Virus record (IMG/VR): IMGVR_UViG_3300023275_000004
Location: 1-64,000 of that record
Strand: one strand, 5' to 3'
DNA: 64,000 bases
Source of the DNA: a virus
Taxonomy: Duplodnaviria > Caudoviricetes
In this document: positions 2,338 through 61,804 of the stretch, one piece after another
Layout of the letters: the number at the start of each line of letters is the position of its first letter
Position numbering within the stretch: the first letter of the stretch is position 1
Translations under genes and position numbers: made by a program
Notes under the pieces: generated by a model
Database searches by the model: none
What the model was told of the DNA's origin: nothing
Seen by the model: only the letters and a program-made list of their open reading frames with translations

Positions 2338-3348
2338 TCAGTTACCAGTCGCTACATCGGCAACATACACGAACTGCTCAGGACGGGTGATAACTGGCAA
2401 CATGTGCCATTCGAGCAAATACTGCCTTGCAGAAGGGTCCTTTTCCTTCCATGTCTTGCTGAACTTACCAGTGTAGTTCGATGGAGCCTCGTCGTCGGCT
2501 GTTGGGCCTTCGATAAGCTCAATCGGACGCTGGTCGGTAAGGTTACCGAAGATCAGCGAGTCATCGTTAAGGAAGTTAACCTGGTTACCGTTGTCATCGT
2601 CATAAACGTGCTCAACTAGGTTCCAGTTAACACCCATGAAGCCCTGAAGCATACCAGTACGGTAATACTCGTCCTTCATACGGTCGCTCATAAGAGCGGC
2701 ACCTGGGAAGTTAGTGGCACCAGTTGCAGCGAATGCGTTGAAGATGTAGGCCATAACCTTCTCAGAAGCCCAAGCTTCCTTGGCCTCAACGCGACCGTCA
2801 CGACGTACAAGCTTCTTCATGGCACGGATGTCGTCAACAATGTTGGCAGGAGTATCTGTGTGCCAAGTGAAACCGGTTAGCTTGTGGCTAGCTGGAAGCT
2901 TGTAGTCAACCGACGCCTGAACGTCTGGGTAGTCGAATACTAGCGTACCAGTAAGGGCCTGCCAGATGCAATACTCAGCGAAGTTGTCGAACCTCTGGTT
3001 AAGGTCAGTTACCTCACGAAGAACAGCCTGCTCAGCGTTCCTACCGGCTAGCTCACCTGGAGTACGAAGCCAGTGAAGTGTAGTCGGCTCGAAAACCTTC
3101 TTCTCACGAAGGTAAACGAACGCTGCACTTTCCTGCGAACGGCCTAGACGAGGAACGATGTGTGCCTCAGAGTTTGGAACGTTAGGCTTGGCGATAGCAC
3201 GCGAACCCTTAATAACATCCCAAGTAGCAGATGGGTAAGGCCATGGAGTGCGGTTAATGCGGTTAAGCATAATTAGATTCTCAGGAGCCGTAAGCTTCTC
3301 GACTACGCCGCGAAGTACGACAGGCTCCAAAAGTGGAATATTAGGCAT
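2338..3348 (-). CDS. Major capsid protein (lambda gpE / phage cap E-like, HK97 fold)
   Basis: 336 aa; EYCIWQALTG..VDY and KTWKEKDPSARQYLLEWHMLPV match the cap E family; follows decoration and protease genes. Confidence 0.85.
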   Translation of the reverse strand: MPNIPLLEPVVLRGVVEKLTAPENLIMLNRINRTPWPYPSATWDVIKGSRAIAKPNVPNSEAHIVPRLGRSQESAAFVYLREKKVFEPTTLHWLRTPGELAGRNAEQAVLREVTDLNQRFDNFAEYCIWQALTGTLVFDYPDVQASVDYKLPASHKLTGFTWHTDTPANIVDDIRAMKKLVRRDGRVEAKEAWASEKVMAYIFNAFAATGATNFPGAALMSDRMKDEYYRTGMLQGFMGVNWNLVEHVYDDDNGNQVNFLNDDSLIFGNLTDQRPIELIEGPTADDEAPSNYTGKFSKTWKEKDPSARQYLLEWHMLPVITRPEQFVYVADVATGN

Positions 3349-3594: not shown

Positions 3595-3981
3595 TCAGAA
3601 TGTGAACGTGTCTAGAACTGTGTCCTGACGTGCGTTCAGGTCTACAAGAGCAGCAGCGTCAGCACCAGATACAAGGCTGTTCTTAAGAATACCCTTGATA
3701 ACGATGTTGGCTAGCTGGTCGCCACCTGTAGTATCTACTGGCCTGCGAAGAACACCACGGGCAACCTCAACGCCGTTTGAAGCGCCATTGTTGTATACGT
3801 AGTACTTCTTGTCCGAAGTCTTACGACCAAGAACAGTTCCGATAGGGAGGATTCCCTGACCGGCCGCAATAGTTACACCCTTCTGAGTATAACCAGCCAT
3901 TGAGTACATAAGCTCCGGGTCAACGAACGTGTCTGTAGGACTCGTAAAACCCGGAACGGGGATCTTTTCATATGCTGCCAT
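3595..3981 (-). CDS. Head decoration protein (lambda gpD/HDPD-like)
   Basis: VTIAAGQGILPIGTVLGR...NGVEVARGVL pattern; position between protease/scaffold and MCP. Confidence 0.8.
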   Translation of the reverse strand: MAAYEKIPVPGFTSPTDTFVDPELMYSMAGYTQKGVTIAAGQGILPIGTVLGRKTSDKKYYVYNNGASNGVEVARGVLRRPVDTTGGDQLANIVIKGILKNSLVSGADAAALVDLNARQDTVLDTFTF

Positions 3982-4037: not shown

Positions 4038-5093
4038 TCACTTAGCCATCTCGGCATAGCGCTTGATGGCCTCGTCAACATTAATCTCGGCACTCTCGGA
4101 CTCACCAGGAGCCTCGCCAGTACCAGACTCGTTACTGAGCTTAACAATTGCCTCGGCTGGTACAAGCTTCTCGAAAAGCTCGGGCTGCTTTGTGCTTAGC
4201 TCGATCATTGCGTCACGCTGTGCTGGAAGTACGCGACCCTCTGCGACTAGGGCGTCAACCTTAGCCTCATTAGCCTGCTTCTCTACTTCCTCAAGTCGGT
4301 TGCTCATAGCTACATAACCTGTAGCCATCTCGGATACGGCAGCAACAATCTTCTCGTCAGCTACCTTAGCGCCCGCTGAAAGCTCGATTAGCCCCGAAGC
4401 CGTAAGGGCCTCTGCCAGGGTATTCGACAGCTTAGCAGCAGATGCATTCTCAGTAACCTTCTTCTGAAGGTCAATAACATCAATGCCGTGCTCATCCTTC
4501 AAAGCATCAAGCATCTCTTCTAGCGTCTGCATATCAGTATTCTCCTTAAGCGTCGGCCCTGTCAGTAGAACCGCTTCACCAGAATTATCGGCTGTAGCTG
4601 CAACAATCTCTTCATATTCGTCCAGACCAGTCACATACGGACGGTTAGTAACGCATACGTGAAGAAGGGTTGGCCCAACCTTCTTACCATTCTTTGTATT
4701 TGTGTAATTCAAATGCATCATTGCTGACGCACCAAGCATGGTCTTACCAAGCTTGTCTGCACTTGCCTTATCCCTAGCATCGATCAGGGCGTAGACTTTG
4801 TTATCCTTCTCTTCAATACCAATTACTTCACCGATATTGCGAGTTGGGTCTTCCGAATGCTCATTCTTATCGTTGGCTACAGGAACCTGCACGATATCGC
4901 AAACGCCATCCTGGAAGTTCTTGGTAAGCTTTGCAACAAAGTCATCATCAACCTTAATTTTCGTTCCTGGGAACGCTGGATGATGTAATTCGCCCTTGTT
5001 TAGAATGTGCTTGCGGAACAGACGACCACTCTTAGTACGAGAAAGTTCAACATAGCCCTCACCATCGGAAGGGACGATTACGAACTCGTTCAC
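4038..5093 (-). CDS. Prohead protease / scaffolding protein (Mu gpI-like)
   Basis: GPTLLHVCVTNRPYV (Mu I-type protease TN-P motif); C-terminal helical scaffold VDALVAEGRVLPAQRD. Confidence 0.8.
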   Translation of the reverse strand: MNEFVIVPSDGEGYVELSRTKSGRLFRKHILNKGELHHPAFPGTKIKVDDDFVAKLTKNFQDGVCDIVQVPVANDKNEHSEDPTRNIGEVIGIEEKDNKVYALIDARDKASADKLGKTMLGASAMMHLNYTNTKNGKKVGPTLLHVCVTNRPYVTGLDEYEEIVAATADNSGEAVLLTGPTLKENTDMQTLEEMLDALKDEHGIDVIDLQKKVTENASAAKLSNTLAEALTASGLIELSAGAKVADEKIVAAVSEMATGYVAMSNRLEEVEKQANEAKVDALVAEGRVLPAQRDAMIELSTKQPELFEKLVPAEAIVKLSNESGTGEAPGESESAEINVDEAIKRYAEMAK

Positions 5094-5135: not shown

Positions 5136-5420
5136 TCAGAGCCCGATAGATTCTCTCTGATAGTTAGAAAGAGTGTCAGATAGGGCTTCTGAAGCAGGAG
5201 CGTCTGTCTGCTCAAACTTGATAAAGTACGGTGAACGTTCAGCTAATTTGTCAAACCAAGAATCCCAAGATATGTCATTACTCTTAAGATTCAACATTGA
5301 CTCGGCACCATCACGATCCTCTGCACGAGTATCTGAATCATAATAAGACTCTAGCCCGCCATGAACCACACGCCAGGCACCAACAGGACCAGTTGAAAGT
5401 ACATGAATTAAAACTTTCAT
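5136..5420 (-). CDS. Hypothetical 94-aa protein (candidate immunity/chaperone for the giant protein)
   Basis: ATGA overlap with the upstream ORF; lies inside the head module. Confidence 0.55.
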   Translation of the reverse strand: MKVLIHVLSTGPVGAWRVVHGGLESYYDSDTRAEDRDGAESMLNLKSNDISWDSWFDKLAERSPYFIKFEQTDAPASEALSDTLSNYQRESIGL

Positions 5421-5773
5421 ACTGCATCCGGTCCTGACTTCATAAGTTCCGCCAACTCTGGCGAAATATTGGCACTCCAGATCATAGGCTTATCAAAGCC
5501 TTCCACCTCTACTTCTGCGAGAAGTGGTTTTTCTTGAATATTTCTATAAGAAGTAATCTGACCAACAAATGTCTTTGGTACATCAAAAACTCGTAGCTCT
5601 ACTACAGGATCTAAACCCTTCATGTCTACGACAGAAATTTTCCATATCCTATAGTGAGGAGCGGACTCCGAATTCTCGGAGCCCTTCCACGCCATGAGAA
5701 GCCCATTAGGAAAATTTTTATCAATGCGCTTCTGCCACTTGTCGGCCGTTACGTTAGGCTGAGGATTAGTCAC
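5417..5773 (-). CDS. Hypothetical 118-aa protein (candidate immunity/chaperone for the giant protein)
   Basis: GTGA overlap with the stop of the 2348-aa gene. Confidence 0.55.
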   Translation of the reverse strand: MTNPQPNVTADKWQKRIDKNFPNGLLMAWKGSENSESAPHYRIWKISVVDMKGLDPVVELRVFDVPKTFVGQITSYRNIQEKPLLAEVEVEGFDKPMIWSANISPELAELMKSGPDAV

Positions 5774-8700
5774 TTACTCCACGCCTCCTTTGCGGCCTTC
5801 TGTGCTGCCATAATGTCATTCTTATTACGCATTACAAAGCGTTGTTCTACAGGCACTCCACGAATCTCATCAACGCCCATATCCTTCAACATCTTAATAA
5901 CCTTATTGCGAAGGACTTCATCAGTGAAGGTAACAATCTCAATATCATCAAGAGTTGAAACTGCATGCTTAATCATAATTTCGTTACCACTGCCACTATG
6001 CTTTGACAGAGCATCGAAATCAAAATACGCTTCTTCTGGCTTACTCTTAATGTTTCCATAATTATCGCCAGCATATGAATAGTTATGAGTACGCTTCAGA
6101 ATCTTAGGATTGTAGTAAACACCCATAAGTCCATAGGAATTAGTACTGGCACTTACTTCCTGGTTCTGACGAATAAACACAAAGCCTGATGATCCATGGC
6201 TCTGGTCAGCAGAAGACGACATTCCATCTTTCCACATTCCAAGCGTACGAAGTCGAGCTTCTGTAGAAAGCATTCCACCAGTGGTAACTGTGTACTGAGC
6301 AGCTTCATCTTGATAGAAACTTCCAGCAAGAAGCTGCTTACTCTGAGCCTCCTCATCAGTTACATCAAAACGCTCCCAATAAGGCTGGCCAGAATACTTA
6401 TTCTGATCTGCCATATGGAAGTGTCCAAACTTAGGAAGATGCCCGCCACTTCCCACAAACTCGTCAATTTGCTCACGAGAAGTGATATTAGCAAAAGCAT
6501 TTCTCCAAGCTTCAATTTCTTCCGCAGGAGTCATATTTGCAGTTTCTACTGGCTTAGCTGCCTTAAACTTATTGTACTTACTAGTAGATTTAGTTTGAGC
6601 TGGGTAGTTATCCTTAGAATCCGCACGGGCTGCCATGATTCCAGCCAAGTGACGCCAATAATAAAGCTCCAGATCATCCTCGTTAGCTTCATTCATAGAA
6701 AGACCCATCTCTGCCATTTGAGCGCGAATACGCTCAAGAGATGCTGCCTCTTCTGCGCCCGCAGGCATAGTGAATCGCGTCAGCCCCTTTGAAGCGGCTG
6801 GCGTACCTGTAGTATTGCCACGGAATTCGATTGTTTCACCAGTTGGAAGCGTAACAAGATACATGCTTCCAGGGTTTCCGTTCTCGTCATATCCAAACTT
6901 GTGGTGAAGCTGACCATCCTCGTCAAACTGAGGAACACCATTCTTAACAGCCTTAGGACTGCTAGCCTGACGAAGCTCTACCTTAACTCCAACACCATCA
7001 GTTGATTCAGGCTTATCTTCCTTAGGAGGAGTGTAAACAAATCTTTCAAACTCGCCAGGAGAGCTCTTAGTTCCGTTCTTCTTGTGCTCCTCAGCCTTCT
7101 TGATGTAGCCCAAATAAGTCTGTGCCATCTCCAAGAATGCTTTAGGGTCCTTATACTGCTTGGCAAGAGCAGCATTTTGAGTAGGATCTGCCATTTTGGC
7201 ATCATAGTCATTAATGTAATTCTGAAGTGTATTCTTAACAAAACTCATTCCATTAAGTTTTCCTTCATTGTACTGACCATCAAGTGCATGATGAGAAATT
7301 GTCTTCACACCAGCAATAATCTGCTGGTAGTAGTCGCCCTCATTTGGAAGCTCAACCTTCATGCTACTAGGTGTAAACCCATAGGCATTGCCCACCTGAA
7401 CAGCATTATCTTTAAGCCACTTCTCCACATCCTTGAATGCCTTAGTCTCTTCACGAATCTTCATTTCTCCGTGAAGAGTGTCCTGGCCTGTCTTACTCTT
7501 AGCATGATAAAGAAGAACATGAGCATCTTCAATTTCTGGCCCACCGAAGAATACAGAAGCTCCATAGGAACCGTTAGCCTTAGCCTGCTCAAGAGCAGCA
7601 GGAGTAATGCCAAGATGAATTTCCTGGTCATCATCATTGACAACAATATTTTCTGGAGGCTGAGGCTTTGTATATCCAGCCCTCTTAAAGACATTACCCC
7701 AAAGCTTTTCCATATCATCCACAAGAGAATTCTTGCGATCAAGAGCACGCTGGATGGCGTCTTCTTTATTAGAAGGGCCTCCAAACCCCCAAACCTTTCG
7801 GTTGGCAAATCCTCTCTCAAGAATTTCTGTCATCTTTGAGTCAGAAATTTTAGACATCTTACGAGCTTGCTTAAGTACAGAGAAGTAAGCTGCATTTGCG
7901 TCTTCTTGAGAAATGCTCTTGTTAGCGATAGCGTCATAAAGCTTAGTGTAAACCAAATTTGCACGAGAATCGGCCTTGGAATCTCCAGTAAGGCCATCCC
8001 AGTGACCAATTCCTACAAAGGCACGCCCTTTATCGATACCAACGACGCTTCCATTCTTAAGGATTAGAAGATTCGCGGCATGACCGTCATCGTTATCCAA
8101 CGCCCAGTCAAGCAAATGCTCTTTGGCAAGATCCTGGATCTGAGCAGTATTTAGATCTGTCACTGACGCCTTGGTAAAATCTTTCTCAGCATCGAGCATC
8201 TGCTGAACATGACCCTTACGGTTATCAAATTCAGTGATATGCGACTTTGCTGTCTTGAATCCCCAAGCACTAGACAACTCATGGGCAGCCTGCTCTACGT
8301 CAGCCAAGAAAATATCCTTGTCCTGACGTGGCTTATAAATCCACTTCTTACCAAACTGATCCGACAGAACCATAGCCTCGTGGGTGCTGGTTACTGTCTT
8401 TCCAGACTCCAAGGTGAACTTAGGCTTCATAGCCTCAGCTAGTTCTGCGGCAGCCTTTGCTGCTTCTTCAGCCTTCCTGTTCTCCATGTGCGAGTTAATA
8501 GGCGTGGCCCAGTCATAGACATAGCCGTTCTTCATACTTTCTGGCACAGAATCAGGGAATTCAGCTGCATAAGACTTCAACGCTTCTTGAGGCCAGGAAT
8601 GAGCTGAGCCTCCAGCCTTGTAATACTCATCGTGTGGCTGATAAGGCTTAACATTAGGAGTGAACTTAGGCTTACTTGAATAAAGAGCCGAAGGATCTTT

Positions 8701-11700
8701 ATCATGACGCTTCTTAGCCTTAAGCGAAAGAACATCCGCTTGAAGCTTAGAACCATTCATGTGGTAGTGAACCCAGTACTTCTTATCAGACGAATCCAAA
8801 TACTCTGGATAAGCCATGTTGGCAGCCAGGATGTAATTATCGATCTCGGCATCTGACATCTTGTATCCATCAGGAGACCATTTTCCTTCTGGAATCTTTC
8901 CAGCAGGAAGTTCACCAGGAACCGCAGCGGCCCAGATAATTTGATGAGTATCCTTATTAAGTGGCGAACCAGGATGTGTCTTATCATCAACTGGCATACC
9001 AGCATAGGTCTCAATTTGGTAGAGCTGTTTCATGTTTCCAGCCTGGAAAGCAGACATCCAGTCAGTCTTCTTATAAGAATTCAACTTGCTTGGAGACTGA
9101 CCAATAACCTTTCCATTACCTACCTGACTAGCAACTTTCTTGATCATGGCATTTTGCTCTGAAGAGCTTCCCCAGTGAAAATTCTGTGATTCTTCCTGGG
9201 ATAGTTCAGGCATGATGTAATAGCCCTGAGAGTCCTTCCCAAAGGCTGCTTTAGCTGCGTTAGGTACAGCCTCTACTGAAGGCTTGTCAGCCTGCTTTGT
9301 TGTAACTCCATGAAGAAGATCATCAATTGCCTTGATCATAGACTTACGAGCTGATCCTGAAGTGTTAGGAAAATACTTTTCAGCGTAGTCTACAAGGAAA
9401 TCAACGTTAATCTGACCGGTAAGCTTCTTAAGCTTAGTCAGAGACCCGTATTCCTCAGAAGTTAGATCGTTACGAAGCTCCTGAAGCTGCTCAGCACTAA
9501 CTTTGTTAGGACCAGCAAACAAGTGATAACCCGAAGGCTTCCCCCCTCCAGGAATTACGACAGTATTTCCAAACTCATCTGTTACCCAGCCTGTACTAAA
9601 GGTACTAAGAACTGCCTCAGCATCGACTGGAATTGCATCCTTACCCGTAGTCTTAAGCAGACCACTACCATCTGGAAGAACTTCAACTGTATGAGCACTA
9701 TCAAATGGCGCATCAAACGAATGGAAATAGTAAGATCCTGTGGCAGGACCGCCTACCTTAGTCTTTTCGGCAGACTGAGCTGGCCCAGCGGCACTTTCAA
9801 CTGGACCTGAATAAACCTTCATACCAGCGTCCCAATTCTTCTTAAACGCGGCAGCGGTTAGCTTCTTCTTGTCGCCCTTCTTATTCACATAGTAAACAGA
9901 GCCGTCGCCATGAACCTCAAGGAAGGCTTTGGCAAACTCCTTACCAATAGAATACTTTCCTGGCTTTACATCCATACCAGAAATTTTAACAGACTTTGGT
10001 GACTCTGTCGACTTTGGAGCATTAATTACTTCCTGAGCAGCCTTCTCAGCATCGGTCTCATTAGGTCCAACTGATGCTTCATTAGGAACATGAACAAGTT
10101 TAGTATCAGACTTATCCTCTACTAGACCTCCGTTACCTATAGCTGACTCAATTTCGGAAGTCATATAATTACTGGCCTTCTTGCTCCCTAACTTAGAAAC
10201 AACAGTCCACTCTTTGGTGTCAGGATCTTGAAGGTACTTCACACCTGAATTTTCAGGTGCAGTAACTGCGGAGTAAAATACCTTAGTTCCATCAGGGAAT
10301 GGTCCAAACTTGCTGTCACTACCAATCTTTACATAAAGACTCTTGTCACTCTTCTGCTCAGCTACTGAGTGATACTTTACCCACTTCGTTAGCGTCCCTG
10401 CGCCAATTTGTTCAAGCCTAGCGTCTTTTTCGTTGCCAGTAACTTCCTTAATTCCTGTTGCCGCTCCTAGTCGCCACATAGTTCCATCAGGAGTTACAAC
10501 ATAAGCAGTAGACGCCAAGTCAGGACTTGCATTCTTGGCGACATAAACAGAAGAGCCTTCTGGAAAGTCTTTATTAGTTCCGCCATTAGCCGAATTCAAA
10601 GAAACATTGAATGTCTTAACTGAGTCATCTACCGGCGTAACATCCTTAGGTTCCCACTCGGCATAAGTTCCTGTACCAATATAGTGCTCAAGAAGCTCCG
10701 CAGTTTGCTGCTTAAGAGGCTTTTCTCCAGAAGAGCTAAGGGTATGCCATGACTTATCTGGATACTGAACATACAAGACTGCAATATCCTGCTTGTTCTT
10801 ATTATTACCTGTTACATAAAACTTAGACCCCTTGGGAACAGTGTGTTCAACATCTGAATCAGCAAAACTTGAAGTAAAGACCTTGATAGTCTTATCTTCA
10901 GACTTATTGGATGGAGCATCGCCTTCCGGCAAAATGTCTCCATTAGCTTTCTTCTTATCCAATTCAGACTTGGCCCAGTCTGAATTTAGAAGGGTATTGG
11001 AACCCTTATCAACATAGAACCACTGACCGTCCTTCTCCTGCACATACTTATACATCGCTGTTTCAGGAGTAGCATTCTTACCGTAGTAAACTACTGCGTC
11101 TTCTGAAAAGGTACCTTTTTCTTTTCCTTCAATGCTTACAGTCTTAGTATTTTTTGACTTATCCTCTTCAGCCTTCTTAGCATCCTGCTTGGCCTTAAGT
11201 TCTATGGCTGCTTTCTTGGCAGCATCAATAGCCGGAGACGCCTTAGGCGATTCCGGTGCCTTTGGTGCTTCAGGAGCATTCTTACTCTCTACAAGCTTTC
11301 CATTCTCATAACTGTCACCTTTTTTAATAGCTCCAGTATCAGAGGTAAGAAACTTGTTCATGCCAAGCTTCCAATGACCCTCAAACGACTTAGGGCCAAT
11401 TTTCTTACGATCGCCGTTCTTGTTCTCGTACTCCGCTGTTCCGTCAGGATGTACGATCAAGAAAGCCTTAGCGAAGCCCTTAGGGCGAGAGTAACGACCA
11501 ACCTTTACTGTCAAATTACCAATCTTGACAGTATCCGGCTGACCCTCTTCTGGCTTACTGACAGGAGCAACCTTAGGCTGCTCCTTCTTAGCCTCAGCGG
11601 ACTTACTGCTGTCAATGAGATCCTTCTCCCATGCAGGGATGTCTGCCTGCTTCTGAGCAGGCTTAGCAGCCTCCTGAGGCTTAACCTCGGAAGCTGGCTT

Positions 11701-12816
11701 GTCTGGAGTCTTCGATCCAATAGGAGTCACAGGCTCTACCTTAGCAGAGCTAGGTTCCTGAGCGCTAGTCTTGTCAGAAACTAGCTTTCCATCCTGGAAA
11801 TGAGAATCCTTCTTGATAGGATCAGTAGACTCCGTCAAGAACTTGTTCATTCCTAGAGACTGATGACTCTCAAAAGACTTGGCAGTAATCTTCTTACGCT
11901 TACCAGTCTTGTCCTCGTACTCAATCGTTCCATCTTCGTGAACGATTAGGAACGCCTTAGCGAAGCCCTTAGGACGAGAGTATCTACCTACCTTGACATC
12001 CTTACCATTAATTTTAACAGTCTTCGATGTTGACTTTTCGGCAGGCTTAGTATCTGTCTCTGGCTTGGAAGTTTCCTTCTTAGCGGGAGAAGAATCCTTG
12101 GATTCTAGTGAGTCCACCTTGTCAGAAAGCTTCTGCAACTTCTGAAGAAGAGTTTTAACCTCTGGATCATAAGGAGTCTTTCCATTAGCAAAGTGGTCCT
12201 GAATCTTACTTGTAAGATCTGATTCAGTCGATACTGGCTCAGCATCAGGAATGTGACTAGAGTGAACTAGTCCCTTAGCTTCCATAGCCTGAAGAGCATT
12301 AACCTGCCCAGAAGTAGCTAGAACCTCTGTCTTTACCTGACCATTTTCGTAAGTCTGGGTATACCACTGACCATCCTTCTTCTGTACCCAACCCATAGTT
12401 GCCTTTGAAGGGTCATTTACAAAAGAGGATACATAAAAAGCATCAATATCATTCTTAGTCTGCCCACCAGGAACGCCAGTTATAGGGGCCTGCTTTGGCT
12501 GAGCTAGATTTCCAGAAGGTGCAGATACCTTAGGTGTAGAAGGCTTATTAGGTAGGTTCGTAGAACCTGACGACGAAGCTGCACCACTAGACTTATTAAT
12601 GTCCGAGTGCAGGCTCTTAGTAGCTGCCTCAGTAGCCTTCTTAGCAGCCTTTTCGATCATGTCCTTGGTGATGATAGTTCCGATAGGCTGATCGTACTTC
12701 TTTACGCCTTCAGGAGTACGCACCTTACGCTGCGCAAGCATGATCTCATCAGGATCATCATTTGAAGCCTTCATCTTAGCAAAAGCTTCGATGATTCTAA
12801 TAGTTTGCTCGTCCAC
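5770..12816 (-). CDS. 2348-aa multidomain (polyvalent) head-associated protein with internal repeats, HipA/PI3-4K-like kinase domain and C-terminal ART-like domain
   Basis: Located between portal and protease; WIYKP...LDWALDNDDGHAANLL...GIDKGRAF kinase motifs; GGMLST...NEIMIKHAV C-terminal motifs. Confidence 0.7.
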   Translation of the reverse strand: MDEQTIRIIEAFAKMKASNDDPDEIMLAQRKVRTPEGVKKYDQPIGTIITKDMIEKAAKKATEAATKSLHSDINKSSGAASSSGSTNLPNKPSTPKVSAPSGNLAQPKQAPITGVPGGQTKNDIDAFYVSSFVNDPSKATMGWVQKKDGQWYTQTYENGQVKTEVLATSGQVNALQAMEAKGLVHSSHIPDAEPVSTESDLTSKIQDHFANGKTPYDPEVKTLLQKLQKLSDKVDSLESKDSSPAKKETSKPETDTKPAEKSTSKTVKINGKDVKVGRYSRPKGFAKAFLIVHEDGTIEYEDKTGKRKKITAKSFESHQSLGMNKFLTESTDPIKKDSHFQDGKLVSDKTSAQEPSSAKVEPVTPIGSKTPDKPASEVKPQEAAKPAQKQADIPAWEKDLIDSSKSAEAKKEQPKVAPVSKPEEGQPDTVKIGNLTVKVGRYSRPKGFAKAFLIVHPDGTAEYENKNGDRKKIGPKSFEGHWKLGMNKFLTSDTGAIKKGDSYENGKLVESKNAPEAPKAPESPKASPAIDAAKKAAIELKAKQDAKKAEEDKSKNTKTVSIEGKEKGTFSEDAVVYYGKNATPETAMYKYVQEKDGQWFYVDKGSNTLLNSDWAKSELDKKKANGDILPEGDAPSNKSEDKTIKVFTSSFADSDVEHTVPKGSKFYVTGNNKNKQDIAVLYVQYPDKSWHTLSSSGEKPLKQQTAELLEHYIGTGTYAEWEPKDVTPVDDSVKTFNVSLNSANGGTNKDFPEGSSVYVAKNASPDLASTAYVVTPDGTMWRLGAATGIKEVTGNEKDARLEQIGAGTLTKWVKYHSVAEQKSDKSLYVKIGSDSKFGPFPDGTKVFYSAVTAPENSGVKYLQDPDTKEWTVVSKLGSKKASNYMTSEIESAIGNGGLVEDKSDTKLVHVPNEASVGPNETDAEKAAQEVINAPKSTESPKSVKISGMDVKPGKYSIGKEFAKAFLEVHGDGSVYYVNKKGDKKKLTAAAFKKNWDAGMKVYSGPVESAAGPAQSAEKTKVGGPATGSYYFHSFDAPFDSAHTVEVLPDGSGLLKTTGKDAIPVDAEAVLSTFSTGWVTDEFGNTVVIPGGGKPSGYHLFAGPNKVSAEQLQELRNDLTSEEYGSLTKLKKLTGQINVDFLVDYAEKYFPNTSGSARKSMIKAIDDLLHGVTTKQADKPSVEAVPNAAKAAFGKDSQGYYIMPELSQEESQNFHWGSSSEQNAMIKKVASQVGNGKVIGQSPSKLNSYKKTDWMSAFQAGNMKQLYQIETYAGMPVDDKTHPGSPLNKDTHQIIWAAAVPGELPAGKIPEGKWSPDGYKMSDAEIDNYILAANMAYPEYLDSSDKKYWVHYHMNGSKLQADVLSLKAKKRHDKDPSALYSSKPKFTPNVKPYQPHDEYYKAGGSAHSWPQEALKSYAAEFPDSVPESMKNGYVYDWATPINSHMENRKAEEAAKAAAELAEAMKPKFTLESGKTVTSTHEAMVLSDQFGKKWIYKPRQDKDIFLADVEQAAHELSSAWGFKTAKSHITEFDNRKGHVQQMLDAEKDFTKASVTDLNTAQIQDLAKEHLLDWALDNDDGHAANLLILKNGSVVGIDKGRAFVGIGHWDGLTGDSKADSRANLVYTKLYDAIANKSISQEDANAAYFSVLKQARKMSKISDSKMTEILERGFANRKVWGFGGPSNKEDAIQRALDRKNSLVDDMEKLWGNVFKRAGYTKPQPPENIVVNDDDQEIHLGITPAALEQAKANGSYGASVFFGGPEIEDAHVLLYHAKSKTGQDTLHGEMKIREETKAFKDVEKWLKDNAVQVGNAYGFTPSSMKVELPNEGDYYQQIIAGVKTISHHALDGQYNEGKLNGMSFVKNTLQNYINDYDAKMADPTQNAALAKQYKDPKAFLEMAQTYLGYIKKAEEHKKNGTKSSPGEFERFVYTPPKEDKPESTDGVGVKVELRQASSPKAVKNGVPQFDEDGQLHHKFGYDENGNPGSMYLVTLPTGETIEFRGNTTGTPAASKGLTRFTMPAGAEEAASLERIRAQMAEMGLSMNEANEDDLELYYWRHLAGIMAARADSKDNYPAQTKSTSKYNKFKAAKPVETANMTPAEEIEAWRNAFANITSREQIDEFVGSGGHLPKFGHFHMADQNKYSGQPYWERFDVTDEEAQSKQLLAGSFYQDEAAQYTVTTGGMLSTEARLRTLGMWKDGMSSSADQSHGSSGFVFIRQNQEVSASTNSYGLMGVYYNPKILKRTHNYSYAGDNYGNIKSKPEEAYFDFDALSKHSGSGNEIMIKHAVSTLDDIEIVTFTDEVLRNKVIKMLKDMGVDEIRGVPVEQRFVMRNKNDIMAAQKAAKEAWSK

Positions 12817-12992: not shown

Positions 12993-14879
12993 TCACTTTC
13001 CGGACTTTGGCTTGACATCTCCACTACCCTCTTCAGGAAGTTCCCAACCTGACGCTACGAACTGAGCTGGATCAAACTTTTGCCTTCTAGAAATGTTTCC
13101 AGAGGCATCTTGAACAGCTACAGTTCCATCGCCATAGACTAGAACCTTGGCTCCCTCGTGGTGAGGATGACGAAGAACCATCATAACACCTGCCCCACCC
13201 TGAGGAGCTGCACCTGTAGAAGCTGGCTGAGCAACAACGGGCTTATTTGGGAGGTTAGGAGCTACAGGAGCGTTCCCTGGAGCACCATCCCCGATAACAG
13301 TACCTATAGGCTTATTGTAGCGCTGCACACCTGTTTGAGAGGCTACCTTACGAGCTAGCTCTACGACATCCTCCGGAAGTACAGCAGTTAGCTGGAAGCC
13401 TTCAGGAAGCGCCGCAGGAGGCACACCTACAGGAGTGGTACCAGAAGCATCAGTAGGCGCTCCTGAGCCGTCTGAGAGGGCAGGATCGGCCTGTGGCTGC
13501 ATAGCCGCTAGTTGCGCCTGCTGAGTCTGAAGAGCCATCTCCTTCTGCTGCTCACGCTCTTTAGTAATTGGGTCCCAGTCAATCTCAAGACCAAGCTCTT
13601 CAGCCATCTGCTTCTCAAGCTCCCATACAAATTCTGGTGAAATTGTAAGAGTCTGACCAGCAGTAGATAGCTTATCGAACGTGTCCTTCATTGCACCCTT
13701 CTGCTCATCAGTAAGTGGTCCCCACTGGAATCTTGGATACTTACCTGAGTTGAAGTTCCAATCAATAAAACGAGGAATAATCTGGTTATTAATAACATCA
13801 GAAATTTCACGCATGATTGTATGAAGCATAAGCATGAACAATGAATCATCCTGCTTACCAAAATCTACAAGACTTGAATCGCCACCACTACCCTGCTCCG
13901 TATCAAAGAATGGGGCAAGAATAGACTTGGACATCTGAGAATTATGATGATTGATGTATTGAAGGAAATCAAACGAGCCAGCTTCCTTAAGACTCTCAAC
14001 TTCATATCCCTCAGGAACAGCAATATACTGAGCTAGACCTACATCAGCTAGCGCCTTCAGGAATCTATTCTTCTCAGTCACATTAGCATTCTTAGGAATA
14101 GTTCCTACTCTGGTACCCATAGCAGCTCTCTGAGCAGCAACATGTAGCAACCAATAAAGCTTTACCTTCTTGTCATAGTGATAGAAGGCAGCCTTAAAAT
14201 ACGACTGTCCGTAAAATGGGCGCTCATCTTCGTTAGCTGTGTAGTAAACAGCATCATCCTTAGGAATTTTTACGTCAATAAGCTCGCCATTAAAGTATGT
14301 CTGCTGACGGAATCCTTCAAAATTTCCATTACGATCAATCAAGAACTTTACCGTCTCGGCTGGACGATAAGCTACCTTCTTAAGAGTGTACTTACCCTTA
14401 AGGGGTCCTGTAGTAGGAGTCCAGTACACCAGTTCAAATGGTGCGAAACCATCAAAGACAGCTCTTAGCATCTGAGAAATTACTAGCGGGAAAGGAGTAA
14501 GCATTCCACCTGATGAGGCTGGAAGAGTGAACATCTTGTTAATGAAGTCAGCTTCCTTCTCTCCGCCACTCTCAAGATCTGTAGGAATGACTGTAGAGGA
14601 CTTCAGAGCAGCCTGAATAGGGCGGGTAAGTAGCCTGTATAGAGCCTGAGCCTGTCCGTCTGATTGACGCATAGCTACAAGCTTTTTTACAGAAACTTCT
14701 TCCTCGCGTGGAAGTTCCCAAGAATTTTTAAACTCGTTCAGGAAAGGAAGATAGAAACTATGTCCTACTTCAACTTCTGTCTCTGGACGAGGGATAGACA
14801 TGCTTGAAAGTCCATCACGTGCTGCTAGCTCAATTACCTCTTCGTCGCCAGGTAGCGACGCTTCTAGATTCTCAGACAT
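12993..14879 (-). CDS. Portal protein (DUF935 / Mu gp29-like) with long C-terminal extension
   Basis: GFAPFELVYW, PFYGQSYFKAAF..Y..K, FLQYINHHNSQMSKSIL, INNQIIPRFIDWNF...YPRFQW; directly after terminase. Confidence 0.85.
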   Translation of the reverse strand: MSENLEASLPGDEEVIELAARDGLSSMSIPRPETEVEVGHSFYLPFLNEFKNSWELPREEEVSVKKLVAMRQSDGQAQALYRLLTRPIQAALKSSTVIPTDLESGGEKEADFINKMFTLPASSGGMLTPFPLVISQMLRAVFDGFAPFELVYWTPTTGPLKGKYTLKKVAYRPAETVKFLIDRNGNFEGFRQQTYFNGELIDVKIPKDDAVYYTANEDERPFYGQSYFKAAFYHYDKKVKLYWLLHVAAQRAAMGTRVGTIPKNANVTEKNRFLKALADVGLAQYIAVPEGYEVESLKEAGSFDFLQYINHHNSQMSKSILAPFFDTEQGSGGDSSLVDFGKQDDSLFMLMLHTIMREISDVINNQIIPRFIDWNFNSGKYPRFQWGPLTDEQKGAMKDTFDKLSTAGQTLTISPEFVWELEKQMAEELGLEIDWDPITKEREQQKEMALQTQQAQLAAMQPQADPALSDGSGAPTDASGTTPVGVPPAALPEGFQLTAVLPEDVVELARKVASQTGVQRYNKPIGTVIGDGAPGNAPVAPNLPNKPVVAQPASTGAAPQGGAGVMMVLRHPHHEGAKVLVYGDGTVAVQDASGNISRRQKFDPAQFVASGWELPEEGSGDVKPKSGK

Positions 14880-14899: not shown

Positions 14900-16756
14900 T
14901 TAAAAATCGGTTGGTGGCTCGTAGTACATATTTGAAATTTCAAAGCCAGCAAATTTCTCTACTTTAGTACCAACCAAAATTTCAAATTCTTCGTAGTGGG
15001 CTTCTCCACCGTCAGGATCTTCCTCTCCACCAAGATCAACGGCACCAAAAGCAGCACATGCAAGAGCATCCGCCTCATCTTTACTACCAGTGGTAGGGTG
15101 ATCAACTTTTCCATTTGGTAGCTGGTTAAGACTCAGTAGTTCGTTCATCACCAGGTCACGCTTAGGAATCCAGATACGACCATCGTGAATAAGGTCCTTA
15201 AGATTCCTCCAAGGCTCAGAAGAACGATCCGTAGAAACCCTGTCAGACTCGATTCCATGAATGTCTTCAAGAATCTGCATAGAGTCCTTCGACTGGAATC
15301 CATCGAAAGTGAACCTCTGAATGTTGAATCCACGCTTCTTTAGCTCCAGGCAGAGCTGCCTAGCCCAGCGAATTTGGATTTCACGTGGAGGTTTTGCAGA
15401 AATATCAGCCTCGTAAGAAATTACAAAGTCCATCTTAACATTAGGGCGCATTTCTCTAACTGTAATTTCTGCGCCATCTTCGTCATAGATGATATCTTCA
15501 AATTCTTCTTGACTGATTACGTGAGCCATAGCGATACCAGCGCGGTCACCATTAATGGCAAGGTCACCATGCATAGCGTACCTAGCGCCATTGATAGGAA
15601 TGAAGTCTGGAGCAAAGTCGTACTCTGGCTTCCAGGTTTCGCCATCCTGTACGTACCTTACTGTAATAGGCTCCTGCGCAACGTCATGGAAAACGCTCTT
15701 AACAGCAGCTTCGTTCCTGAAGTAAGGATTTACAGCCCTAGCTGGCTTGCACTCATACTTAGCAGCAGCCTCGATAGGATCTTTTTTGTACTGAGTAGCA
15801 AATTTTTCAGGTCCCGTAACACGTGGATTTACTTCCCACGTAGCATATGGACCAGAAACATAACTCTTAGACTCCTCGCCCATCTCTTCATTATCCTCCT
15901 TGCCCTCATTAATGAGAGACATGATAGGAGAACCCAAATAACGAGGGTACGAGATGGCTACCAGCTTATAGATATCTGGAAAACGAGTAGAAGCCGAAGA
16001 ATCCATCATGTTCATGATGTGTTCGGCTGAGTTCGTGATAGAAGAAGATCCCTTACGCTTGCCATCAAGAGCTGAAGGAAAAGCGTCAATTTCGTCAGCG
16101 ATGCCTAGCAGTAGGTTTAGACCTTCCTGACTTTCAGCATCAGAGTGACCAGAAATAGCTAGAACGTTCTTGTCAAACTCGACCTGATTCATGGTTGGAT
16201 TACACTTGTCCTCGAACCAGCCTTTTTTTACGGCTCTTTTAATAGGATCGAAGAAGGCAAGCATAGCCTGACGAGCGTTAGTAGCTACGTTCAAGGTGTG
16301 AATAGAGTCAGCATCAGGCATTTCATAGTAAAGCTGGGGTGACTTCAGGGTCAGTAGCAAGTAAATTACGCGGAGGGTAGCAACACGTACTGTGTTGTCT
16401 TTTCCGGCTCCCTTACCCCACATCGCTGTAATTTTGTTCGTCATACGAACTTGCTGACCCCAGTAAGGCTCTTCACGATAAGTAGCAAATGAGCCTACTA
16501 CCAGTCTGGACTTCTTGACTTCAGTCTCAGCTAGCAAAGCGATAGTGTCAGGAAAGTAAATCTGCTCGATCTGGCGAACGAGATTCCATTGGATAGGACT
16601 CAACTGGAATTTGGTACCAAGAGATGCCCCTAGATACTTTCTGTCTGAAACAAAAGTATCTAGGGGTACCGGAATCTCGTCAAAGAGGTCGTCTAGATCG
16701 GAATCCGTAGTTCGATCTAGAGTAGCTTCTCCAAGCAGCCTCGATAGGTCGCTCAC
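14900..16756 (-). CDS. terL: Terminase large subunit
   Basis: Walker A WGKGAGKD, Walker B IADEID, RNase H-like nuclease motifs HGDLA / TFDGFQS / KDEADALA. Confidence 0.9.
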   Translation of the reverse strand: MSDLSRLLGEATLDRTTDSDLDDLFDEIPVPLDTFVSDRKYLGASLGTKFQLSPIQWNLVRQIEQIYFPDTIALLAETEVKKSRLVVGSFATYREEPYWGQQVRMTNKITAMWGKGAGKDNTVRVATLRVIYLLLTLKSPQLYYEMPDADSIHTLNVATNARQAMLAFFDPIKRAVKKGWFEDKCNPTMNQVEFDKNVLAISGHSDAESQEGLNLLLGIADEIDAFPSALDGKRKGSSSITNSAEHIMNMMDSSASTRFPDIYKLVAISYPRYLGSPIMSLINEGKEDNEEMGEESKSYVSGPYATWEVNPRVTGPEKFATQYKKDPIEAAAKYECKPARAVNPYFRNEAAVKSVFHDVAQEPITVRYVQDGETWKPEYDFAPDFIPINGARYAMHGDLAINGDRAGIAMAHVISQEEFEDIIYDEDGAEITVREMRPNVKMDFVISYEADISAKPPREIQIRWARQLCLELKKRGFNIQRFTFDGFQSKDSMQILEDIHGIESDRVSTDRSSEPWRNLKDLIHDGRIWIPKRDLVMNELLSLNQLPNGKVDHPTTGSKDEADALACAAFGAVDLGGEEDPDGGEAHYEEFEILVGTKVEKFAGFEISNMYYEPPTDF

Positions 16757-51176: not shown

Positions 51177-51264
51177 TGGCGGTGTCTACAGGATTTGAAC
51201 CTGTGGAAGTTTTACCTTCTCTGGTTTAGCAAACCAGTGCAATAGACCACTCTGCCAAGACACC
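51177..51264 (-). tRNA. tRNA-Ser(GCT), CCA encoded
   Basis: Cloverleaf with long variable arm; CTGGT-TT GCT AA-ACCAG. Confidence 0.9.
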
Positions 51265-51290
51265 AAACGGGCAACTATCTGCCCTAAAAC

Positions 51291-51707
51291 TTAGAACGTA
51301 CTGTAATTACAAGATACGCTCTCTGCTGGACCATCTTTATCGAGTACCCTGCCATCAATATCGGTGATCCTGCAAGTCAAATCCTGTCCATCCTTAGTTG
51401 AGGAGGCAGTAATTTTTGTGGAGCTAGAAAGGTAGTACTTGCTGAACGGAAGCTCAACAAAACCTTCCTTCTTATCATCTTCATTAACTGAGTACATAGA
51501 AATCTGTGCTGAAATTCCTGTACCTTCAAGCTCTATGTGCATTTGAATTCTATCTACTGGCTCATTTGGTCTCTCATGTCTACTACCCACAGTCCCATAC
51601 GCTATATAAATATACCCTAGCGCTAGAACAAAGAGAGTTGCCATGATCAGAACGAAATTCTTCCTCAACTTAATCCTTTCTAAATTGTGCAACAGCTGAG
51701 TTAGCAA
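51291..51707 (-). CDS. MmpS-like membrane-anchored protein (start uncertain)
   Basis: TM helix plus LTCRIT..DG.V......VSC. Confidence 0.55.
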   Translation of the reverse strand: MLTQLLHNLERIKLRKNFVLIMATLFVLALGYIYIAYGTVGSRHERPNEPVDRIQMHIELEGTGISAQISMYSVNEDDKKEGFVELPFSKYYLSSSTKITASSTKDGQDLTCRITDIDGRVLDKDGPAESVSCNYSTF

Positions 51708-51909
51708 ACATCATGGCAATCTGAAGATGCTTGATAGCTTCTACTTTTTCATCACAATCAGGAAGCTTCTGCTGCCACTCATAAGCAAGATCACCAATAG
51801 TTTCTCGTACAGACTCATGACTAAGCACTTGAGCCAGACTTGTAGGACGATGGTATCTGAACTTATTAGCTACTCGCTCAAGCTCGGCAGGATCATATCG
51901 GCTTTCCAT
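51670..51909 (-). CDS. Acb2/Tad1-like helical hairpin protein (DUF7681-like)
   Basis: F.YH.P...HE.VR...LA...LP...EK..AI..L..AMM.AN.AVA pattern. Confidence 0.6.
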   Translation of the reverse strand: MESRYDPAELERVANKFRYHRPTSLAQVLSHESVRETIGDLAYEWQQKLPDCDEKVEAIKHLQIAMMFANSAVAQFRKD

Positions 51910-52123
51910 TTAGCCTCCTCAGAAAAAAACAAGGGCGATAACTACAACTACACTCAAAATAGAAATAAGAATTAGTTTCTTGTTATACTGACGCTGAGGC
52001 TTAGTTCCATGATATTGGTGCCAAGCATCCCTAGCATATTTTTGCTGTGCTTTTCTATCTAGATAGCGTCGCCACCAAGGATAATCCTTAGACATAGGCA
52101 CTCCTTATTTAGTTTTTATAGAG

Positions 52124-52211
52124 CGGAAGAGGTAGGACTCGAACCCACACGGGTGTTACCCCCAACAGTTTTCAAGACTGCGACCCATAGACCGACTTGG
52201 CTTACTCTTCC
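52124..52211 (-). tRNA. tRNA-Ser(TGA)
   Basis: GCAGT-CT TGA AA-ACTGT, long variable arm, GTTCGAG T-loop. Confidence 0.85.
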
Positions 52212-52883
52212 AGCGCTGTTTTTGATATACGGAATGGAACAGCAAAACCATCCCTGAGTACTACGATCTTCCGCTAGTCCCTCTACGCCTGCCTAGTAGA
52301 CGCCTGCGCTCAACCTCACCAGCAGTAGCCGAATAAAGATAGTCAGGATACTTGCGCTGAACCCTAGAAACTCTCGTCTCTGGAGTAGGGTTACTGGCAA
52401 AAGCCCTCTTTATTGCTCTGATAACCCAGCTAGGACGTTTGTCTGCCATCATCGCACCGCCGCGTAAATAATTCCTGCAACGCCAAGAACGGCGATAAGC
52501 AGAAGTCCAATAAGGATCGCCCCAATTAGACCATACACGTTCATACTACGCTTAGCCATAATTTCTCCTAGTTAAGAAAGATCGAGAGAATGTTCATCAC
52601 AATTACCAGCAAAATCAAAGTACCATACACTACTCCGACTGCGATAAATAAATGCTTTAGTTTAAAATTACGATCTCTTGACATCTATTCCTCCATTTGC
52701 TGTCGCGGACCCTCTACATAATAGAAAGGAATAAAATACTTTGTCAAGGGTTCGTCGGTAGTTTGATTTTATCGATTGAACTCATCAAGACTGGAGGTTT
52801 CGCACCAAAGAGTGCCTGAAGGAAGCCAACTTTGGTACCAGGTTTTAACTAATGTAGATTTATAATTTTCAATATCTTTCACG

Positions 52884-52958
52884 TACTCCATGTCAGATTT
52901 GAACTGACTCTCACGAATTTATAAGATTCGCCCGTTTACCAGAGATCGGCTATGGAGC
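52884..52958 (-). tRNA. tRNA-Ile(TAT)
   Basis: CGAAT-CT TAT AA-ATTCG; acceptor GCTCCAT/ATGGAGT, discriminator A. Confidence 0.75.
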
Positions 52959-53024
52959 ATAGCCCCCGTTTGCGCTGGATATCACAAGCGACTTATAACC
53001 CGCACGGAGACAAACACGGGATTT

Positions 53025-53161
53025 AGAGTGTGAAGAGAATTGAACTCTTCCAGCGGACTTGCGCAAGTCCTTTTTTCCACCAAGATTTTATTATGCGGAG
53101 TCGAACCGCACTCCCGTCCAGGAAAATGTTGGAATCGAACCAACGACTGCCATTTACACCC
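53025..53161 (-). ncRNA. tRNA-like RNA with three T-arms
   Basis: GGGTGT/ACACTC closing stem; GTTGG-TTCGATT-CCAAC, GTGCGG-TTCGACT-CCGCAT, GAAGAG-TTCAATT-CTCTTC. Confidence 0.65.
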
Positions 53162-53167
53162 TTAACG

Positions 53168-53243
53168 TCCTCGCACTAGGATTTGAACCTAGGACCTCTC
53201 GTTTATCAGACGAGTGCTCTAAACCTGACCGAGCTATACGAGG
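53168..53243 (-). tRNA. tRNA-Ile(GAT)
   Basis: CTCGT-CT GAT AA-ACGAG. Confidence 0.9.
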
Positions 53244-53258
53244 TTGAAATTTAATACG

Positions 53259-53336
53259 TCTGACAAGGAGGAATCGAACCCCCGCCCTCTTGAAGAAACA
53301 CACCTCAAGCGCTCTCACCGCTAGAGCTATTGTCAG
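53259..53336 (-). tRNA. Non-canonical tRNA (extended anticodon arm, identity undetermined)
   Basis: Normal acceptor, D and T arms; anticodon arm CTTGAGG-TGTGTTT-CTTCAAG. Confidence 0.65.
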
Positions 53337-53444
53337 CCAGAGAAGGCCGCTGAATCTCCGTCTCCCACCAATTAGCTAGCTTCGGTCAGTAAGTCAGTAA
53401 CCCCTACTGTGGACCTAATGCTACCTAATGGATGTTTATTCACG

Positions 53445-53527
53445 TGTACCAGGAGGGAGTCGAACCCCCGAACCCGAAGGAATGGTTTTACAGACCACCG
53501 CAACTAACCGACAGTTGCCTCTGATAC
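53445..53527 (-). tRNA. tRNA-Tyr(GTA)
   Basis: GTGGT-CT GTA AA-ACCAT, variable arm with UUCG loop. Confidence 0.85.
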
Positions 53528-54033
53528 ATGAAGGATCTTTTTAGTTATTTAGCTGGCAGCCAATCCTTCAACCTCTGCCGCGCCTCTTACGCTTTAAATA
53601 TTACTACCTGCTTGGTGTGTTGTCAAGTCCTAGGTTGTGGCAGCTACGTAAATCGAGTAGACAATATAGCCTACCAGCAGCAGTAGGAACAACACAACGC
53701 CAATTTCTAGCAAGTTGGTGATGAATTTTCTCATACTATCACCCAAACATTATAACTGCAAGGATGATTGCTAGGACTATAAACCCACCAAGAATAACAG
53801 ATGCCTTGGTATACGGGGAAGAGCCTTTCTGTCTGTGTCTAGCCATAAGTTTAACTCCCTCTGTATTATGTGGTCTAAGCCTAGCACTTGATTACTAGGC
53901 TGTCAACCTCTCACCAGAAGTCGCCTGAGCTAATATCCAGGCCACAACATATAACGATAATCAAAAAAACCACTACTACCGCTACCACAATAGCGGGGAA
54001 AGAGATCTTTACTTTAGTCTTCAAGTTTTCCTC

Positions 54034-55224: not shown

Positions 55225-55475
55225 GGCCTACCCTCAAACATATCTAGCAGTTCTTGTATTTGAACAGTCTTGTCAGCTAACCTTACTTCCATTTCAGCTA
55301 GCAAGGCTAAAGCTTCTTCCTTAGTTGTAACTTTGTACTGAGTCTTTAAAATTTCTTTTGCATTAGCTACATCAGCCCTAGCAACCTCAGCCTTATGTTC
55401 AGCCATAAGCTTAGCCTTAGCTGCTGCCTGCTCTCTGGCCTTCAAGGCTTGAATTTCCTGATTAATGTCTGACAT
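55221..55475 (-). CDS. Small coiled-coil protein
   Basis: GAGGAG RBS before MSDINQE; coupled to dnaN. Confidence 0.55.
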   Translation of the reverse strand: MSDINQEIQALKAREQAAAKAKLMAEHKAEVARADVANAKEILKTQYKVTTKEEALALLAEMEVRLADKTVQIQELLDMFEGRP

Positions 55476-55485
55476 TATTTTCTCC

Positions 55486-56316: not shown

Positions 56317-56393
56317 AAAAAATCATCCTAGCTTCTCTAGTTGGCTTACCTATATTACCAGGCGAGCGAACCTCGGGAGAAGCTAGGATGATT

Positions 56394-56855: not shown

Positions 56856-56872
56856 GTCGCTCCCCTCTCTAG

Positions 56873-59781: not shown

Positions 59782-59862
59782 GACGGAACTCCTCTCAACG
59801 TAAAACTCCCGTGCTTTCTACTGTACTAGCAGAAAGCACGGGAGTCAAGTAAAACGTTAGGA

Positions 59863-60845: not shown

Positions 60846-60852
60846 ACACTAC

Positions 60853-61479: not shown

Positions 61480-61488
61480 GATTTCTCC

Positions 61489-61728: not shown

Positions 61729-61804
61729 ACTTCCTCCAAAGTAAAACGCCCTTACCGATAAGTCAAAGACTATCAGGAAGGGCGCTACATGTCAAACTGG
61801 AAAG

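Follow-up and report, generated by a model that had tools for sequence, protein, structure and literature searches.

Background

Enzymes that are packaged in phage heads act on the host before phage transcription, and only a few of them have been studied, i.e. Alt of T4, the virion RNA polymerases of N4 and of crAss-like phages, and Dar of P1. The closest described systems to the one considered here are the polyvalent proteins and MuF-fused effectors, which include head-packaged ADP-ribosyltransferases (ARTs), kinases and MuF fusions, and for which packaging and injection are predicted for the class (PMC5512222, PMC9503650). In this work we analysed a giant protein of 2348 amino acids (aa), encoded in the head module of an uncultured leaf-litter phage of ~125 kb. 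Positions refer to the window, i.e. the first 64,000 nucleotides (nt) of IMG/VR record IMGVR_UViG_3300023275_000004 (the complete record being 125,618 bp long and 98% complete), and all features lie on the minus strand unless indicated otherwise. The giant open reading frame (ORF; P0001, 5770-12816, GTG start) specifies a kinase-like domain and an ART-fold domain resembling DarT, and is followed by two small genes, here called s118 and s94. Its product is probably a virion-delivered, head-associated polyvalent effector of this lytic phage.

With the polyvalent class of Iyer et al. (2017, 2022; PMC5512222, PMC9503650) the giant protein has in common its very large, multidomain build, its place among the late head genes, the link to MuF in its relatives and the combination of a kinase with an ART, as well as the occurrence of NUDIX and Alt-type ART domains in relatives. 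The domains themselves are different. Whereas the kinases described for that class (PMC5512222, PMC9503650) are of the Ser/Thr/Tyr type without C-lobe and its ARTs belong to the Tox-ART-HYD2 or Alt/VIP2 clades, the kinase of the giant protein is nearest to PI4K-II, CtkA and HipA and its ART is nearest to DarT; moreover, the two form a fixed tandem of ~1200 aa instead of shuffled cassettes, and MuF is missing. What is new relative to the known polyvalent and MuF-linked effectors is the size of a family that has no name, the fixed kinase-ART tandem, the use of a DarT-like fold by phages, and a conserved tag and set of partner genes.

Functional analogues are found in better known phages. T4 Alt is a head-packaged ART (PMC5512222), and the Gp0.7 kinase of T7 has many host proteins as substrates and disables defences (PMC13645617). 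Both are separate small proteins of families unrelated to the giant protein, and Gp0.7 is expressed early rather than packaged. The family described here would join two activities, each with strong precedents in the takeover of hosts and in anti-defence. Moreover, bacteria are known to use DarT as a toxin against phages, and deployment of a DarT-like fold from a phage capsid would therefore reverse the usual roles. Finally, a tag shared with portal tails and two coupled partner genes offer handles on how very large cargo is loaded with or without MuF.

A large family without a name

An exhaustive HMMER search of metagenomic proteins with aa 1400-2348, at a cut-off of E ≤ 0.001, yielded 1127 sequences that each represent a cluster at 50% identity, and 256 of these matched at E ≤ 1e-30. 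The match is nearly always C-terminal, in proteins of 1053-4193 aa. According to the alignments the conserved core starts at about aa 1150, and relatives of the short form (1053-1375 aa) are essentially this core alone; the giant protein therefore consists of a core of ~1200 aa behind an N-terminal extension of ~1150 aa. The giant ORF is real beyond chance, since it is kept full-length in metagenomic relatives (with full-length homologues at 54-57% identity) and since its last 949 aa match the 1127 clusters.

The ~1200-aa module, ancient and conserved, is a large family without a name in Pfam, PHROGs or NCBIfam. With Pfam, the giant protein gave a single sub-threshold match to HipA_C and no DarT, ART or MuF domain; PHROGs held no family for the giant protein, s118 or s94, and NCBIfam returned nothing relevant for any of the three. 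Among the INPHARED phages a megablast search with the locus was without match, as was a tblastn search with aa 1940-2348 at E ≤ 1e-5, and no comparable full module was found among 50,697 sequenced phages. A sequence search of the PDB likewise gave no match with the kinase segment and none with the family profile. The sequencing runs with matching DNA were leaf-litter metagenomes, with no RNA run among those listed.

From its start near aa 1150, where conserved alignment columns set in, the core comprises a pre-kinase conserved region (aa ~1150-1455; 8452-9369), the kinase-like domain (aa 1455-1716; 7669-8454), a middle α/β and helical region (aa 1717-1959; 6940-7668), a subdomain ahead of the ART (aa 1960-2149; 6370-6939) and the ART-fold domain (aa ~2150-2337; 5806-6369). 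The middle region is delimited by the secondary structure of the model and by profile matches that fall into two stretches, with a variable linker around aa 1880-1960. Residue conservation was counted over ~158-160 representatives of 50%-identity clusters. The candidate catalytic residues K1495, E1508, D1577, N1582, D1595, R2188, S2200 and E2279 were each kept in more than 87% of them, which suggests that the catalytic-type residues of both domains are under purifying selection.

The N-terminal half (9820-12033) is non-enzymatic and without any Pfam domain. Piecewise BLAST revealed three copies of a repeat A (aa 262-335, 429-498 and 939-999) and ~4-5 copies of a repeat B (a weak one at aa ~120-200, the others within aa 560-910), separated by linkers that are charged, of low complexity and rich in K, E, S, P and A. 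Tandem Repeats Finder detected no tandem repeats at the DNA level in the giant ORF, i.e. the repeats exist at the protein level only. Three ORFs of 135-251 aa run antisense inside the giant gene (5654-6061, 6196-6792 and 7084-7839, all on the plus strand); these are most likely frame shadows, because it is the minus-strand frame that the relatives conserve.

The kinase-like domain

The AlphaFold2 model calculated for aa 1455-1885 from an alignment of 40 sequences reached a mean predicted local distance difference test (pLDDT) score of 89.9. The region contains, at aa 1492-1600 (nt ~8020-8340), the string WIYKP...LDWALDNDDGHAANLL...GIDKGRAF, on which the preliminary description had based its proposal of a HipA-like kinase. 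The Foldseek search proposed there for this region returned a kinase fold, with at least 500 matches in the PDB at E ≤ 0.001 and kinases only among the 50 matches listed. VIA-align against 48,161 chains ranked PI4K-IIα first (Z 15.7; root-mean-square deviation (rmsd) 3.9 over 229 aa), and CtkA (Z 14.4), ATM (13.3), Vps34 (13.2), MavQ (12.9), actin-fragmin kinase (12.2) and HipA (11.5) were also found. Here too, all 50 of the rows listed were kinases, and they span residues 1-262 of the model.

The residues that a kinase would need are largely in place. K1495 is kept in 146 of 160 representatives, E1508 in 140, D1577 in 147, N1582 in 141 and D1595 in 152, and these would correspond, in the right order and at the right spacing, to the ATP-binding lysine, the helix glutamate, the catalytic aspartate followed by an asparagine at +5, and the metal-binding aspartate. 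D1577, the aspartate of 'DGH' that had been proposed as a target for mutation, is thus near-invariant. The histidine of the 'DGHAAN' loop is kept in only 88 of the 160, the family consensus being DNDDxHGxN or DNDDSWGAN, which indicates that the signature of the family is the Asp-x4-Asn spacing and not the exact DGHAxN motif. Of the HipA-like kinase put forward earlier, the fold and the conserved Asp and Asn therefore stand, but the exact DGHAxN loop is not family-wide.

The relation to HipA is one of fold and working pattern. A fold (Z 15.7-10.3) and a K/E/D-x4-N/D pattern are common to HipA, CtkA, PI4K-II and the kinase of the giant protein. HipA_C (PF07804) matches aa 1465-1533 below threshold (E 0.008; 16.3 bits against a cut-off of 30.5), and weak HipA_C matches recur in family members, with E down to 3e-6; the best relative, at 27.7 bits, also stays under the Pfam threshold. 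In contrast to HipA, for which a HipA_N domain, a HipB partner and the histidine of D-x-H-x-x-N would be expected, Pfam searches of P0001-P0003 detected neither a HipA_N domain nor a coupling domain, nor any helix-turn-helix family or HipB-type partner. At the level of the modelled fold, the domain is best described as atypical protein-kinase-like, of the PI4K/CtkA/HipA type; judged from the model, its working pattern is that of HipA and PI4K, but it lies outside the HipA family.

A homologous kinase-like domain is present in mycobacteriophage proteins (25-28% identity across ~235-283 aa, with E of 1e-8 to 3e-14 by tblastn and of 2e-17 by pairwise BLASTP), examples being prophiFSQJ01-1 gp54, McProf gp54 and Onyinye gp16, which are described as a 'minor capsid and ADP-ribosyltransferase domain fusion'. 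As in the giant protein, the kinase-like domain is followed by an ART at the C-terminus, and the whole is encoded in the head module; gp54 opens with a MuF-like VG15 domain. In contrast to the giant protein, these fusions measure 1170-1340 aa, their C-terminal ART is of the R-S-E exoenzyme type (ADPrib_exo_Tox, PF03496) and not DarT-like, and elsewhere in the module no similarity is detectable. The kinase-like domain is found in both types of module, and thus recurs with two ART families in MuF-linked head proteins. In prophiFSQJ01-1 gp54 (L001:4651-8163), Onyinye gp16 (L002:4443-8465) and Phrappuccino gp195 (L003) the annotation reads MuF/ART fusion, ART or hypothetical, and the kinase domain is unannotated.

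The DarT-like ADP-ribosyltransferase domain

The AlphaFold model of aa 1960-2348 (44 sequences) had a mean pLDDT of 90.0 and a predicted template modelling score (pTM) of 0.89. Against the 48,161 chains the four best matches of VIA-align, which is independent of Foldseek, were all DarT, namely E. coli DarT1 (Z 9.5; rmsd 4.0 over 159 aa), Thermosipho DarTG (9.2), M. tuberculosis DarT (8.1) and Thermus DarT2 (8.0), with alignments covering 148-159 aa. The next rows, Tpt1 (6.3), SopF (5.9) and OspC3/CopC (4.8), are all of the ART fold as well, and unrelated helical matches scored at most 5.0. The SopF and OspC3/CopC alignments reach partly into the preceding subdomain, which consists of a small β unit and helices.

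A shape search of the ESM-Atlas gave a PF14487 DarT cluster among the nearest models, as well as a cluster dominated by viruses, which bears the automatic name 'phage head morphogenesis protein' and matched model residues 10-379 with a TM score of 0.55. Matches in BFVD were weak, and included iridovirus and baculovirus proteins; separately, a family called ORF28 has been related to DarT (PMC9503650). A search for shorter proteins in which the ART domain stands alone gave only contig-truncated fragments.

The string GGMLST...FVF...NEIMIKHAVSTLDDIEIV, quoted in the preliminary description in support of a DarT-like ART, lies at aa 2180-2295 (nt ~5930-6280). Conservation over 158 representatives is high, at 155 for R2149, 151 for R2188, 147 for R2190, 145 for S2200, 149 for D2204, 148 for R2216, 156 for D2251, 158 for G2254 and 155 for E2279. 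The near-invariant R2188/R2190, S2200 and E2279 stand in R...S...E order along the sequence, and E2279, the glutamate of 'NEIM' that had been proposed for mutation, opens a β-strand of the model, where ARTs usually have their catalytic glutamate. In DarT1 and DarT2 this glutamate is E152 and E160, respectively (PMC11543638).

DarT of the DarTG systems is the best structural match of the C-terminal domain (Z 9.5-8.0), with in both cases a glutamate that opens a late β-strand, and as far as the fold is concerned the earlier DarT-like assignment has held. There are also differences: sequence membership of the DarT family is lacking, there is no DarG macrodomain or NADAR partner, and the domain is fused to ~2100 aa in a 2348-aa protein and encoded in a phage head module, whereas DarT is a host defence toxin and part of a toxin-antitoxin pair. 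It is justified to speak of a modelled 'DarT-like fold', but not of a 'DarT family member acting on DNA'.

MuF linkage and the N-terminal tag

The giant ORF is flanked by the gene of a Mu-type portal (12993-14879; 628 aa; PF06074, E 2e-38; phrog_113) and, beyond the small genes, by that of a Mu-I-like prohead protease (4038-5093; 351 aa; PF10123, E 7e-9; phrog_328). Coordinates, strand and lengths agree with those reported previously, and the neighbours confirm that the setting is a head module, the gene order on the minus strand being TerL-portal-giant-s118-s94-protease-decoration-major capsid protein. Across twelve related loci the genes run portal-[MuF]-homologue-small genes-protease-decoration-capsid, and in every locus seen the module sits between portal/MuF and protease.

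In L005, L006, L007, L009, L014, L017 and the locus of P0016, MuF (PF04233) is a separate gene immediately upstream of the homologue, some of these matches being sub-threshold, and in the 3121-aa homologue of L010 (1736-11101) it is fused N-terminally (aa 132-233), in a protein that also has a NUDIX domain at aa ~600-725. The preliminary description had placed the giant ORF at the position of MuF. It was right about the head-module setting, but simple occupation of the MuF slot does not hold, as the relatives carry MuF either separately upstream or fused. The giant protein is probably a MuF-associated cargo, and its lineage has lost a recognisable MuF.

Several relatives carry additional domains or genes. 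The giant relative in L016 (5001-15707) has a NUDIX domain in its N-terminal part. P0099 (4193 aa; L014:4415-16996) has an extra Alt/VIP2-type ART (PF03496) at aa 79-218 besides its C-terminal DarT-like domain, and in the same locus an 836-aa gene upstream of MuF (L014:871-3381) contains a 2H/LigT phosphoesterase domain. In L007 (6916-7143), L009 (6773-7003), L014, L015 and L017, MuF and the kinase-ART gene are separated by a gene of 69-78 aa, the copies of L007 and L009 being 58% identical; there is none in the window.

Near the N-terminus of the giant protein, aa 22-49 (RKVRTPEGVKKYDQPIGTII; 12670-12753) match a stretch of 28 aa in the C-terminal extension of the portal (portal aa ~502-529; 13293-13376), with 12 of 28 residues identical and a pairwise E of 8e-7. 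In its fuller form this tag motif of ~25 aa reads [RK][RKH]V.[TS]..G...[YF]..P[IVL]G..I. Its relaxed form, G-x3-[YFW]-x2-P-[IVL]-G, mostly preceded by [RK][RKH]V-x-[TS], occurs in the first 120 aa of 77 out of 157 large relatives (the N-termini of P0015-P0140), all of at least 1986 aa, and in the same scan of N-termini it was found in none of the short-form homologues. The portals of L005, L006, L007 and L009, which are loci of short-form relatives, do carry it in their tails. The tag is a good candidate for mediating an interaction in the capsid interior, and it may be a head-loading signal. It is not simply a substitute for MuF, since P0033 has the tag next to a separate MuF.

The two small downstream genes

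Both junctions of the small genes, s118 (5417-5773; 118 aa) and s94 (5136-5420; 94 aa), were checked, and the 4-nt overlaps of s118 with the giant ORF and of s94 with s118 are as described before. Such stop-start overlaps of the small genes recur in L004, L015 and L017. The s118 family is characterised by a WQ..FP.G motif, with hidden Markov model (HMM) matches in L004, L006, L010, L011/L012, L013, L014, L016 and L017, and the s94 family by H..GPVG.WR ... SWD.WF..L.ERSPY, with HMM matches in L004, L007-L011, L013, L014, L015, L016 and L017. The two families always follow the homologue immediately and in an unchanged order, although the giant proteins share only ~30% identity, which indicates that s118 and s94 are genuine conserved partners of the module. 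The s118-like proteins are uniformly acidic (isoelectric point (pI) 4.3-5.4); those like s94 range from pI 4.4 to 10.5. Neither s118 nor s94 has a match in Pfam, PHROGs or NCBIfam or a likeness to DarG, NADAR or HipB, and look-ups of both in the ESM-Atlas gave scores below 0.9, which are uninformative.

It had been suggested earlier that each small protein is the antidote of one enzymatic domain. The comparison of loci has so far lent no support to this suggestion: the presence of the small genes does not track the domains, as both enzyme domains are kept, and yet L005 is without small genes, L006 without s94 (i.e. with the s118 type only), and L007-L009 without s118 (i.e. with the s94 type only). 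A role of s118 and s94 as chaperone, loading adaptor or co-cargo is at least as likely as one as antidote.

Possible functions of the module

What is established here, i.e. both folds, the conservation of catalytic-type residues, the location in the head module and the MuF linkage in relatives, is best accommodated by a polyvalent effector that is delivered with the virion. The giant protein would be produced late and enter the procapsid close to the portal, via MuF in the relatives and possibly via the N-terminal tag here, and it would then be ejected together with the DNA. Inside the host, and ahead of any phage gene expression, it would use ATP and NAD+ to modify host targets by phosphorylation and ADP-ribosylation, presumably for host takeover or for the disarming of defences, with T4 Alt and the T7 kinase as precedents. 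The translationally coupled s118 and s94 would be dedicated partners, serving as chaperone, loading adaptor, inhibitor or co-cargo. The relatives speak for a polyvalent character, since these add NUDIX or an Alt/VIP2-type ART N-terminally, and since the mycobacteriophage kinase sits between VG15 and ART.

Several observations weigh against this explanation. The presence of the giant protein in the virion and its ejection are predicted, and likeness of modelled folds is no proof of enzyme activity. As stated already in the preliminary description, the giant protein has no MuF domain: PF04233 has no match in it nor anywhere in the 98%-complete genome, and hhalign of the MuF profile against aa 1-1250 gave a probability of 0.07%. 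With no recognisable MuF in the phage and its close relatives, the loading route is therefore hypothetical. As for the ART, the assignment is one of fold, carried by VIA-align and the ESM-Atlas; Foldseek gave no match at E ≤ 0.001 in the PDB or BFVD; its PDB matches had E values of only 0.2-1, with DarT chains at the highest probability (up to 0.72, at E 0.3). PF14487 (DarT) has no match in the giant protein at E ≤ 1, and the family profile finds no DarT sequence in the PDB at E ≤ 10. The putative R/S/E catalytic triad was assigned from conservation and strand position. Finally, the ART domain is acidic, with a pI of 5.6, which lends no support to DNA binding; DNA-binding DarT toxins are not known to be acidic like this.

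The alternatives differ mainly in where the module would act. A toxin-like injected protein, with one small protein per enzymatic domain to keep that domain inactive in the producing cell, as in MuF polymorphic toxins with their immunity genes, would fit the translational coupling of the small genes (with the overlaps repeated in L004, L015 and L017), the persistence of both families, in order, behind relatives of ~30% identity, and the acidity of the s118-like proteins, which many immunity proteins share. On the other hand, the absence of one or both small genes from L005, L006 and L007-L009 is at odds with one antidote per enzymatic domain, neither small protein resembles the DarG macrodomain, NADAR, HipB or any family, and a lytic phage of 125 kb with 13 tRNAs would have little need to protect a doomed cell; this explanation is unlikely. 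We consider it equally doubtful that the module serves morphogenesis, by modification of proteins of the capsid or portal, or of DNA in the course of packaging, in the producing cell or the procapsid, with the small proteins as assembly factors. The strict position between portal/MuF and protease would then be understandable, as would the kinase-ART tandem, which is obligate and kept as a unit rather than shuffled like typical effector cassettes, and the nearest solved ARTs do modify DNA bases (PMC11543638). However, DarT acts on single-stranded DNA whereas packaged DNA is double-stranded (PMC11543638), the enzymatic domains known to be linked to MuF are read as ejected effectors (PMC5512222), and the NUDIX and Alt-type ART domains of the relatives are typical host-directed cargo.

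A head protein with a structural or internal-scaffold role only, in which the enzyme-like folds are vestigial, could be argued for from the repeats and linkers without enzymatic signatures that make up about half of the giant protein; it is nevertheless very improbable, as the conservation of the catalytic-type residues of both domains in over 87% of ~158 divergent representatives is not expected for decayed active sites. More far-reaching, and given only a slim chance by us, is that the kinase and the DarT-like ART form an obligate two-step machine, kept together in over a thousand phage lineages and exchanged in part only in mycobacteriophages, where the kinase has an ART of another family as partner. 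Released from the capsid along with the DNA, this machine would act in sequence on one substrate, with the tag and the small proteins as a MuF-independent loading system. A nucleic-acid end or base, or one host protein, would for example be phosphorylated and then ADP-ribosylated. If true, this would amount to a new virion-delivered modification system, and not just another effector fusion.

Other genes in the window

The remaining head genes lie on either side of the portal, the giant gene and the protease. The large terminase (TerL) is encoded at 14900-16756, upstream of the portal, and the protease gene is followed by those of a lambda-D-like decoration protein (3595-3981) and an E-type major capsid protein (2338-3348). 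Directly downstream of the latter, on the same strand, are an endonuclease VII gene (1817-2269) and a nuclease-like gene with an Excalibur domain (642-1178). The 13 tRNA genes, also on the minus strand, are spread over 51177-63875, and include two each for Ile (one of them with anticodon TAT), Gln, Pro, Ser and Thr.

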